Shown here piece after piece: positions 17,659 to 18,732 of a stretch of 22,012 nucleotides of DNA. This DNA comes from an uncultured Pseudomonadota bacterium (GTDB lineage Bacteria; BMS3Abin14). Position 1 is the first letter of the stretch. Each line of letters begins with the position of its first letter. The notes below the pieces were generated by a model, which saw nothing but the letters and a program-made list of their open reading frames with translations, was not told the DNA's origin and ran no database searches. The stretch lies in the NCBI GenBank assembly GCA_964454175.1, contig CAYVSA010000007.1:29232-51243 (forward strand), given 5' to 3'. Both the position numbers and the translations under genes were made by a program.

Positions 17659-17913
17659 TTAACCATTGACGACAAAAATGAGCAAGAGAGCAACCACGAG
17701 GGCATAAATGCCTGTTGACTCTGATACAGCCTGCCCAACAAGCATGGTCCTCGTGAGAAGGCCTGCCTGTTCAGGGTTTCTTCCAATGGCCTCGCAGGCC
17801 TTGCCCGCGGCAAATCCCTCGCCGATACCTGGCCCTATTGCCCCGAACCCCATGGAGACTCCAGCGCCGAGCAAAGCCGCGGCCCTTATAAGTTCAGCTC
17901 CTGAAATTGCCAT
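17659..17913 (-). CDS. atpE: Fo subunit c, single hairpin, Na+-type two-carboxylate motif
   Basis: 84 aa with GxGxGxG helix, P28, E32, RNP loop, and E65-S66-T67-x-x-Y70. ATG with an AGGAGG RBS. Confidence 0.97.
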
Positions 17914-17988
17914 TTCTTCCTCCTTTTGAATACTTTTATTTCAGCGTTGTCAGTTTTAGCGATATAAGACTGGTCATCTCCGCTGGGC

Positions 17989-18732
17989 CTAGATGATCAG
18001 AATGAGCGCGAATGAAATGATCATCGCGAAAACTCCCGGCGACTGACACACTGCCTGTCCCAGGAGCATTACTCTCGTCAAAAGCTCGGTTGCCGCGGCG
18101 GGGTCACGGTGGTGCCTGATACCGATAATTGCTGATTCCGCGGCGAACCCGCCTCCGATAGATGGCCCCATCGCCCCAAACCCCATACAGATCCCGGCCG
18201 CTAACACAGAGGAAAACTCCACAATGCCGGCCGCGTGCTGCTGTTTCATGAAAAGAAGCATGAAAGACACCAGGAGCGCGAAGATGACCGGGGTCTGCGT
18301 CAAAGCCTGGCCAATGAGCATGGTAGTAGTCATTGGAGCACGAAGGCGCGGCTGGCGAGCAATCGATTCACAGGCCCTGGCTGCCGGAAGGCCGCTCCCG
18401 ACCCCTGATGCAAAGGAAGCTGCCCCGATAGAAATACCTGCCCCCAGGCCAGCAAAACCTTTCAGGATGCTGGCACCTTCGGTGCTGCCGAAAAGCAGGA
18501 GTATCGCCACTACCAGTGCAAATATGGCAGAAGTTTCCGTGACAGCCTGTCCCACCAGCATTATGCGGAACAGGTCCGGCGAAATTTTCGGCTGGCGGCT
18601 TATGCCCTCACAGGCATATCCTCCCGACATCCCCTCTCCAACCCCGGGTCCGACGGCTCCAAGGCCAACGGCGATAGCAGCTCCGAGCATGTAGAGTGTC
18701 TTGACGAGATCGGCTGCGGCTATGGAATCCAA
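17989..18732 (-). CDS. atpE: Triplicated (three-hairpin) Fo subunit c; only hairpin 1 keeps the ion-binding glutamates
   Basis: 247 aa made of three ~80-aa c repeats: GPGVGEG..RQP..GQAVTETS; ASGVGSG..RQP..GQALTQTP; GPSIGGG..RHHRDP..GQAVCQSP. TTG start behind AGGAGA. Confidence 0.93.
   Translation of the reverse strand: MDSIAAADLVKTLYMLGAAIAVGLGAVGPGVGEGMSGGYACEGISRQPKISPDLFRIMLVGQAVTETSAIFALVVAILLLFGSTEGASILKGFAGLGAGISIGAASFASGVGSGLPAARACESIARQPRLRAPMTTTMLIGQALTQTPVIFALLVSFMLLFMKQQHAAGIVEFSSVLAAGICMGFGAMGPSIGGGFAAESAIIGIRHHRDPAAATELLTRVMLLGQAVCQSPGVFAMIISFALILII

Follow-up and report, generated by a model that had tools for sequence, protein, structure and literature searches.

Why should an otherwise canonical F-type ATP synthase operon carry two c-subunit genes in tandem, one of them encoding three fused hairpins? 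The question is raised by a 22,012-nucleotide stretch of DNA from an uncultured Pseudomonadota bacterium (GenBank assembly GCA_964454175.1, contig CAYVSA010000007.1, positions 29,232 to 51,243), which we call the window and whose coordinates we use throughout. In it, a gene for a 247-amino-acid protein of three covalently linked c hairpins (17989..18732, minus strand), for which we coin the name c3, lies immediately upstream of a gene for an 84-amino-acid single-hairpin c subunit, c1 (17659..17913, minus strand). Open reading frames, gene order, and Pfam assignments all agree with an earlier reading of the sequence alone, which had described two tandem atpE genes in a canonical F1Fo operon. 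We consider it probable, at about 0.62 for this statement together with the full mechanism set out below, that c3 is a true F-type rotor subunit maintained by selection and a lengthened version of the "V-like" c1 of Acetobacterium woodii, and that it is built into a mixed ring with the c1 of the window.

The Pfam model ATP-synt_C (PF00137) matches c3 in three stretches (E 1e-37, 128.6 bits against a cut-off of 24), NF009999 (F0F1 subunit C) reaches 146.1 bits, summed over the three stretches, against a cut-off of 124, and a purpose-built hairpin hidden Markov model divides the protein at residues 2-83, 82-162, and 163-247. In each hairpin we read five positions: the helix-1 site, the carboxylate position, and the residues at +1, +2, and +5 from the latter. 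Hairpin 1 (residues 1-82; 18487..18732, minus strand) has the pattern E-E-T-S-F, with E33 (GAG, 18636-18634) and E66 (GAA, 18537-18535) accompanied by T67, S68, and F71; hairpin 2 (residues 83-162; 18247..18486, minus strand) has S-Q-T-P-F, with S113 and Q146 (CAG, 18297-18295) in the motif Q-T-P-x-x-F; and hairpin 3 (residues 163-247 and the stop codon; 17989..18246, minus strand) has G-Q-S-P-F, with G194 and Q230 (CAG, 18045-18043) in Q-S-P-x-x-F. The essential carboxylate of the outer helix is present in hairpin 1 (E66) and missing from hairpins 2 and 3 (Q146, Q230), and hairpin 1 is, judged by these motifs, the sole ion-carrying hairpin of c3. Across 23 three-hairpin proteins, Q146, T147, P148, and F151 of hairpin 2 are invariant, and so is Q230 of hairpin 3. 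Hairpin 3 also has a loop of its own, R-H-H-R-D-P (residues 206-211, window 18097-18114), which exceeds the RQP loops of the first two hairpins by two residues and in which R206, H208, R209, and P211 are invariant in the same 23 relatives. In c subunits the loops touch gamma and epsilon, and this one may make a special contact with the central stalk. AlphaFold2, run on a 23-row alignment, predicts six long helices, some of them kinked, with a mean predicted local distance difference test score (pLDDT) of 92.6 and a predicted template modeling score (pTM) of 0.88. The three ATP-synt_C stretches and six helices are what the sequence-only reading had expected, and the codons that it named for E66, Q146, and Q230 lie where it placed them, with E33, S113, and G194 also correct.

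The neighboring c1 (PF00137, E 1.8e-18) has a complete Na+-type motif, E32 with E65-S-T-G-I-Y, and the five-position pattern E-E-S-T-Y; its identity is 75-95% across three phyla. By a rule for Na+ sites given in a preprint (helix-1 E/Q plus E[STQ][STQ]xxY; 10.64898/2026.10.01.756066), c1 qualifies on its own, and hairpin 1 of c3 reads ETSxxF, so its Tyr would have to come from a neighboring hairpin. A single-hairpin c gene with E..ESTxxY (ESIxxY in one case) is the next gene downstream of the fused one in 39 of 47 loci, and seven of the remaining eight end at a contig end or an N run; the eighth is a distant, 32%-identical four-hairpin c gene of another lineage (L057, G020:C1:686400-687068), with the carboxylate pattern E/Q/E/D and no single-hairpin c gene within the ∼1.2 kb downstream that was examined. 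The two genes of the window also differ in their start signals. The ATG of c1 stands behind an AAGGAGG Shine-Dalgarno sequence, as it does in 20 of 20 distinct upstream contexts, while the TTG of c3 sits behind a weak AGGAG that overlaps the atpB stop; over 21 distinct readable contexts c3 starts with GTG (10), TTG (7), or ATG (4), with the same weak, overlapping AGGAG. Weak signals for c3 and strong ones for c1 fit c3 as a minor ring subunit. The c3-c1 and c1-b′ spacers fold as RNA no better than shuffled sequences (z 0.06 and 0.22), and a promoter and terminator scan returned nothing convincing (5 terminator-like sites against 4.3 expected).

Is such a gene maintained? In a search of 41 genomes, c3 was present in each of the 15 further species genomes sampled from the family (8 other genera), hence in 16 of 16 with the window's own, and in 1 of 25 genomes outside the family, where the kin are listed as "same domain" only and are hence distant. 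The next kin of the window genome after the 15 same-family genomes are in that category, and the family appears taxonomically isolated among the genomes sampled. Genome and metagenome scans for closer c3 relatives reached no more than 68% identity, although one protein, P0002, is 89% identical. The order parB-bactofilin-atpI-a-c3-c1-b′-b-delta-alpha is conserved, and the same gene and synteny recur in independent assemblies, including records titled as chromosomes of metagenome-assembled genomes. The c3 frame is intact in 16 of 16 family genomes, with three copies cut solely by contig ends or an N run (one relative's gene is interrupted by an N run in the record, not by mutation). For the 20 species pairs with usable synonymous divergence, all among the relatives because the window lineage is too diverged, ratios of nonsynonymous to synonymous substitution (dN/dS, NG86 method) are 0.023-0.167 for c3 and at most 0.33 for any single hairpin, compared with 0.059-0.170 for subunit a and 0-0.070 for c1. 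The c3 gene is under purifying selection, though it changes faster than its neighbor, with within-family identity of 61-68% compared to 89-95% for c1.

Most of the family has no ion site in c3. In 13 of the 16 family genomes, hairpin 1 has Ser at the carboxylate position and no c3 hairpin with a readable site has a carboxylate (3 of these Ser-type copies are partial); E/Q/Q is kept in 3 of 16, namely, the window's genome (G000), G004, and G011. The sequence-only reading had proposed to test whether E/Q/Q is conserved under purifying selection: selection is seen, as is the invariance of Gln146 and Gln230, and the Glu of hairpin 1 is absent from most of the family. Its argument against decay holds up, and an assembly artefact can be set aside as well, given the intact frames, the low dN/dS, the invariant Gln residues, and the independent assemblies. 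E33 and E66 change together, with relatives that have Ser66 showing Ile, Met, or Val at position 33. In a tree of full-length c3 proteins the five Glu-type rows fall on one side of a branch (support 99/97), so a single Glu/Ser change is indicated; under midpoint rooting a Ser-type group branches first, and the direction of change is not fixed by this tree. In a tree of first hairpins with outgroup hairpins, the Ser-type rows, of which 6 were sampled, group together (0.97) inside the Glu types, a result that favors a single loss of the hairpin 1 Glu, with an insecure root and a support of 0.42 for the first-hairpin clade. The tree of subunit a proved unusable to polarize the change, having an unresolved backbone, long branches that distort the midpoint root, and outgroup cassettes inside the polytomy. 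In hairpin 3 of one divergent family member (G007, locus L054), the former carboxylate position holds His, not Gln (S-H-A-S-Y).

Beyond the family, a word-indexed search with c3 gave 676 matches, and the best 120 of these plus the window protein comprise 36 three-hairpin, 51 four-hairpin, and 34 five-hairpin proteins. Their carboxylate patterns are S/Q/Q (32) and E/Q/Q (4) with three hairpins, E/Q/Q/Q (30) and E/Q/Q/E (21) with four, and E/Q/Q/Q/Q (32) and E/Q/Q/Q/E (2) with five. An exhaustive search of 1.84 billion cluster representatives found 92 clusters at E ≤ 1e-30 and 362 at E ≤ 1e-10; among the 150 clusters listed, lengths peak near 160, 245, 320, and 405 residues, with a few of 524-1139. 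Loci with fused c genes come from Desulfobacteraceae, Desulfatirhabdium, Thermodesulfobacteriota, and "Candidatus Omnitrophota" records as well as from the window lineage. By sequence, c3 is a member of a widespread series, from uncultured organisms, of two-, three-, four-, and five-hairpin F-type c subunits distributed over several phyla, not a one-off. A FastTree phylogeny of 112 hairpins, which covers the surveyed two- to five-hairpin genes without A. woodii c1 itself, sorts them by position in the protein (all first hairpins, 0.42; all last hairpins, 0.80; last hairpins with the neighboring single c, 0.78), which suggests one fusion origin followed by growth through middle hairpins, the support for the first hairpins being weak. 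Some long c-like proteins, P0140 (1139 residues), P0169 (968), P0261 (784), P0242 (631), and P0206 (524), match the c3 query in 3-9 stretches, implying many fused hairpins.

Does c3 sit in a ring, and with what neighbors? In the Ilyobacter tartaricus ring, Na+ is held by Gln/Glu of one hairpin together with Ser, Thr (via water), and Tyr of its neighbor. We therefore compared the donor Tyr at +5 with the carboxylate of the neighboring hairpin at 378 within-protein junctions of 128 multi-hairpin proteins. Where hairpin i has the +5 Tyr, hairpin i+1 has a carboxylate in 25 of 25 junctions, and where hairpin i+1 lacks a carboxylate, hairpin i lacks the Tyr in 350 of 350, counts that overstate the evidence because the sequences are related and not independent, and that are better taken as a pattern than as a statistic. 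The only exceptions are 3 junctions with a carboxylate in hairpin i+1 and no Tyr in hairpin i, and the 35 distinct patterns alone give 6/6 and 98/98 with the same 3 exceptions. The reverse pairing obeys no such rule, as a Tyr in hairpin i+1 accompanies a carboxylate-free hairpin i 131 times and a carboxylate-bearing one 4 times. The last hairpin carries the Tyr in 110 of 128 proteins (20/38 with three hairpins, 55/55 with four, 34/34 with five) even though its own site is usually Gln, which has a rationale only where the next hairpin in a ring bears a Glu. The predicted complex of c3 with c1 points the same way. The co-fold scored 0.72, compared to 0.00 for the best of 3 controls, on a rough scale, applied with our own alignments, on which 116 of 157 solved complexes, but also 2 of 215 mismatched pairs, attain the pass mark. 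Between runs at least 98% of contacts agree, and the partner pLDDT is at least 88; the models dock c1 on hairpin 3 (c3 residues 169-246), which would place c1 after hairpin 3, with c1 residues 21-41, 61-62, and 65 against c3 residues 228-236. Together, the Tyr/carboxylate rule and the co-fold model argue that c3 sits in a ring. Furthermore, a c3 without any site, as encoded in the orthologous operons of sister genomes, could matter for ion transport only beside c1 in a ring.

The window operon is not the only source of membrane-sector genes in this genome. The assembly is 98.5% complete and has one alpha, one beta, one gamma, and two b-type genes, all of them in the window. A second module on another contig (G000:C1, locus L020, 9076-10921, minus strand) encodes ATPase_gene1 (atpZ-like), an unassigned 132-amino-acid open reading frame, a 237-amino-acid subunit a, and a single c subunit with the motif Q..ESLxxY; beyond it lie genes for multihaem cytochromes and a Rex-like gene. 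That locus has none of the genes for b, delta, or F1, so the second module would have to use the window's set, and one F1 with its stator probably serves two membrane modules. The a subunit of the window is 37% identical to the genome's other a and 52-55% identical to those encoded beside four-hairpin c genes of Desulfobacteraceae, and 14 of the 16 genomes of the family have two a genes. Contigs C33, C40, C62, and C11 carry four genes for Rnf/Nqr-family subunits (two of them adjacent) and a single gene for a membrane pyrophosphatase, which make a sodium economy plausible and offer possible partners for the ATP synthase. Seven relatives (G001, G003, G005, G007, G009, G013, and G014) have extra ATP-synt_ab matches, of which the window's genome has none; in six of the seven these include a second pair, with open frames of ∼492-528 and 504-690 amino acids, that resembles an additional A/V-type ATPase.

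The mechanism that we favor would work as follows. The c3 protein would be made in low amounts and built, probably in one or a few copies, into the same ring as the abundant c1. Each ring hairpin would donate its +1, +2, and +5 residues (Ser/Thr, Thr, Tyr) to the Glu of the following hairpin, and E33 and E66 of c3 with the Ser-Thr-Tyr of the preceding c1 would make a complete Na+ site. Hairpins 2 and 3, neutral by virtue of Gln146 and Gln230, would pass subunit a and its stator Arg166 without an ion, as proposed for A. woodii. The c1 after hairpin 3 would receive Ser231 and no Thr or Tyr (Pro232 and Phe235 stand there instead), and its site would probably be weakened. With k copies of c3, a ring of N hairpins would carry N − 2k ions per turn and move less Na+ per ATP; with one c3 there would be N − 2 sites, one of them probably weakened. 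The 9 full sites that the sequence-only reading offered for an 11-hairpin ring are thus probably one too many, because hairpin 3 has lost the Thr and Tyr donors for the next Glu. Two consecutive blanks would mean three hairpin steps per ion across that arc, with a turn average of (N − 2k)/3 ions per ATP. With fewer ions per ATP, hydrolysis could build a higher gradient and synthesis would need more driving force; that the ratio might be "tunable," as was also suggested, is speculation. The same F1, b, b′, and delta would presumably pair with the second a/c module as well.

Several points weigh against a mixed ring of this kind. At least two consecutive ion-free positions would create an arc without ion-driven torque, a possible obstacle to ATP synthesis. 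For A. woodii c1 ring membership is an experimental result, whereas c3 is known here from genes and models, and Na+ specificity is likewise a prediction from motifs. The second a/c module means that a ring with c3 need not be the main rotor, and the co-fold result may reflect memory of the solved 4BEM structure or likeness to solved c rings. The junction rule itself, beyond the relatedness of the sequences behind it, cuts both ways: fused subunits alone, forming a homo-oligomeric ring, would comply with it equally well if their hairpin 1 retains the Glu, as in the window, and hairpin 3 of the window breaks it, with Pro232 and Phe235 where Thr and Tyr are predicted (Ser231 is kept), although any follower, whether c1 or hairpin 1 of another c3, has the Glu. 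The loss of the Tyr donor from hairpin 3 is common to 18 of 38 three-hairpin proteins.

Three alternatives were weighed. If c3 and c1 formed separate homo-oligomeric rings, one operon would supply two enzyme populations, for example, a ring of four c3 (12 hairpins, 4 sites) working as a high-gear Na+ pump driven by ATP, next to a synthase ring of c1 alone. With hairpin 1 keeping its Glu pair, a c3-only ring of the window would still move ions, head-to-tail copies of four- and five-hairpin forms would satisfy the Tyr/carboxylate rule too, and this genome already combines a single F1 with alternative a/c modules. However, a c3-only ring would be inert in the 13 of 16 family genomes whose readable c3 sites lack a carboxylate, and yet the gene is under purifying selection there, and 20 of 38 three-hairpin proteins retain the Tyr of the last hairpin; the contrast between weak c3 and strong c1 start signals suits a minor ring component; and the sole characterized relative, A. 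woodii c1, is described as one copy among nine single hairpins (PMC9171764). We regard separate rings as unlikely. It is also improbable, we think distinctly so, that c3 is no lasting part of the rotor and serves instead as a ring-size assembly template or nucleator, or as a regulator or plug acting on subunit a or the other a/c module. The distinct, invariant loop of hairpin 3 would suit a special contact, most relatives lack any ion site, and c3 diverges much faster than c1, but the predicted fold and co-fold are those of consecutive ring hairpins, donor residues would have no need to track the neighbor's carboxylate outside a ring, and the nearest solved relative is a ring member. As for a decaying tandem duplication or an assembly artefact without function, suggested by the TTG start and by two of three hairpins lacking the essential carboxylate, it is hardly credible and already contradicted by frames intact in every family genome, low dN/dS, Gln invariant at both dead sites, a confident AlphaFold2 model, and the same architecture in independent assemblies, among them the chromosome-titled records.

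If the mixed ring with c3 is real, its interest is wider than this lineage. How many ions a rotary ATP synthase uses per ATP is generally held to depend on how many c subunits its ring has, and a conserved three-hairpin, one-site subunit would mean that bacteria also shift gearing through blank arcs within it. A mechanistic question follows, namely, how a rotor turns, especially in the synthesis direction, over two to four consecutive ion-free positions. A bolder view, which we hold only tentatively and think rather less probable than not, is that one F1 with its b/b′/delta stator serves two interchangeable modules, a plain a/c pair and a sodium-type a/c3/c1 cassette found over at least three phyla, with the fused subunit as an evolvable gear insert whose blank arc could rest at, or seal, subunit a. 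Were this so, the ion-free arc would span 2 positions in the window's c3, 3 in that of sister genera, and as many as 4 where five hairpins are fused, live sites would have been reset within one bacterial family (1 to 0), and nature would have a way to set the ion/ATP ratio with ring size unchanged. The window lineage is a useful test case, having close relatives that differ only in a live or dead hairpin 1 and one F1 with two a/c modules, and the operon is compact enough for heterologous expression, as was done for A. woodii.

The remaining genes of the operon are those of a standard enzyme. On the minus strand the order is atpI-a-c3-c1-b′-b-delta-alpha-gamma-beta-epsilon, with every assignment backed by Pfam. 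The first gene is atpI-like (19427..19804; PF03899 ATP-synt_I, E 9e-9), and its product is an assembly factor in A. woodii (PMC7911925); such a gene stands upstream of a in 7 of 14 loci compared, including the three-hairpin-type loci L002-L006 and L010. Fo subunit a (18742..19413, 223 amino acids; PF00119, E 1.3e-47) has its stator Arg, R166, in the motif SFRLFGN. Downstream of the two c genes come b′ (17105..17542; PF00430), b (16527..17105; PF00430), delta (oligomycin sensitivity-conferring protein; 15985..16530; PF00213, E 1e-43), and the sole F1 set of the genome (11665..15978), composed of alpha (14461..15978), gamma (13573..14430), beta (12088..13500), and epsilon (11665..12081), all on the minus strand. 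Upstream of the operon lie parA, parB, and a bactofilin gene (19889-21938), a placement kept in the family. The rest of the window (395-11143) holds housekeeping genes: hisD, hisG, an EPSP-synthase-family gene, prmC, prfA, a DUF1385 gene, rho, a gene for a GAF-GGDEF protein, coaE, and bioY.

How does this operon compare with known rotary ATPases? The sequence-only reading held it to be neither A/V-type nor an N-ATPase, and profile searches bear this out. On c3, no V-type K NCBIfam model reaches its cut-off (58 bits where 211 are required, 53 where 188 are), and the delta, b, b′, gamma, and epsilon genes mark the operon as F-type. N-ATPases have the gene order atpDCQRBEFAG, without delta. The window operon has delta and the canonical order, and the alternative F1Fo subunit c and a models TIGR03322 (100.3 against 130.85) and TIGR03306 (147.2 against 302.1) likewise fall short. 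Archaeal A-type proteolipids resemble c3 in that c hairpins are multiplied covalently with fewer ion sites, as in the triplicated K of Methanocaldococcus jannaschii, presumably with a reduced ion-site pattern, and the 13 hairpins of Methanopyrus kandleri, but they belong to A1Ao operons, while c3 belongs to a bacterial F1Fo operon with delta, b, and b′. A passage on archaeal c subunits lists "1, 2, 3, or even 13 hairpins" and there gives such numbers for archaea only (PMC9171764). The V-type c/K subunits (Enterococcus hirae NtpK, 2BL2; eukaryotic c, c′, and c″) are double hairpins with one site that superpose on two of the three c3 hairpins (TMt 0.79-0.84), but they are 20-28% identical and of another enzyme class, and V rings are regular, with a site at every second hairpin and no local blank arc.

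Among single-hairpin F-type rings, PDB chain 3zk1_A, which we take to be the c ring entry of Fusobacterium nucleatum, matches c3 with E 5.4e-13. The F. nucleatum c11 ring has Glu in both helices (PMC3692424), as do c1 (E32/E65) and hairpin 1 of c3 (E33/E66); unlike a ring with c3, it is homomeric and has no fused or blank hairpins. For bacterial F-type c subunits with more than two hairpins, a full-text literature search found no description, in keeping with the sequence-only reading, which knew of no characterized three-hairpin form; Brandt and Muller 2015 (Biol Chem 396:1031), a survey of how hybrid rotors are distributed, and Matthies et al. 2014 (Nat Commun 5:5286) may bear on this. The 2026 preprint cited above, which deals with rotary ATPase evolution, calls F-type rings "predominantly" hairpins and cites A. 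woodii as its sole mixed case (10.64898/2026.10.01.756066), a passage of an mBio 2026 article mentions "two to four atpE copies" in Desulfatiglandales, citing Brandt and Muller 2015, and the genome papers PMC4046663 and PMC3551663 mention a "c1 subunit" merely for A. woodii sequences in alignments.

The nearest known system, as had been proposed, is A. woodii c1, which is the best PDB match to c3 both by sequence (4bem_J, E 1.2e-24) and by fold (Foldseek, 4bem_J, E 2.8e-7, 162 columns, 34% identity); no PDB chain in the Foldseek search spans all three hairpins (best TMq 0.60). To our knowledge, the two-hairpin c1 of A. woodii and Clostridium aceticum is the sole documented bacterial F-type exception to a gearing set by c-subunit number. 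Both of these proteins retain the Na+ site in their first hairpin and have lost the carboxylate of their second (PMC7911925), and the A. woodii ring is described as composed of nine single hairpins and one single-site V-type c (PMC9171764). The likeness extends to the locus, where an F1Fo operon headed by atpI has a fused hairpin gene flanked by atpB and a single-hairpin c gene (order there from PMC7911925), and to the sites, with the carboxylate and +5 Phe kept in the first hairpin and Gln at the later one; in the 4bem_J alignment hairpin 1 reads Q..ETSxxF and hairpin 2 Q..QTTxxY, which matches the polarity of first and last hairpins in the series described here. Unlike A. woodii c1, with two hairpins and four helices, c3 has three hairpins and six helices, including an extra ion-free middle hairpin and hence two consecutive blanks. 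Helix 1 of its first hairpin has Glu (a two-carboxylate arrangement) where A. woodii c1 has Gln, its last hairpin has lost the Thr and Tyr donors where A. woodii c1 keeps Thr-Thr-x-x-Tyr, and its host genome has a second a/c pair. What the present analysis adds to that system is the Tyr/carboxylate junction rule, the loss of the hairpin 1 Glu in 13 of 16 genomes of one family, and the occurrence of one F1 and one b/b′ set with two a/c pairs.

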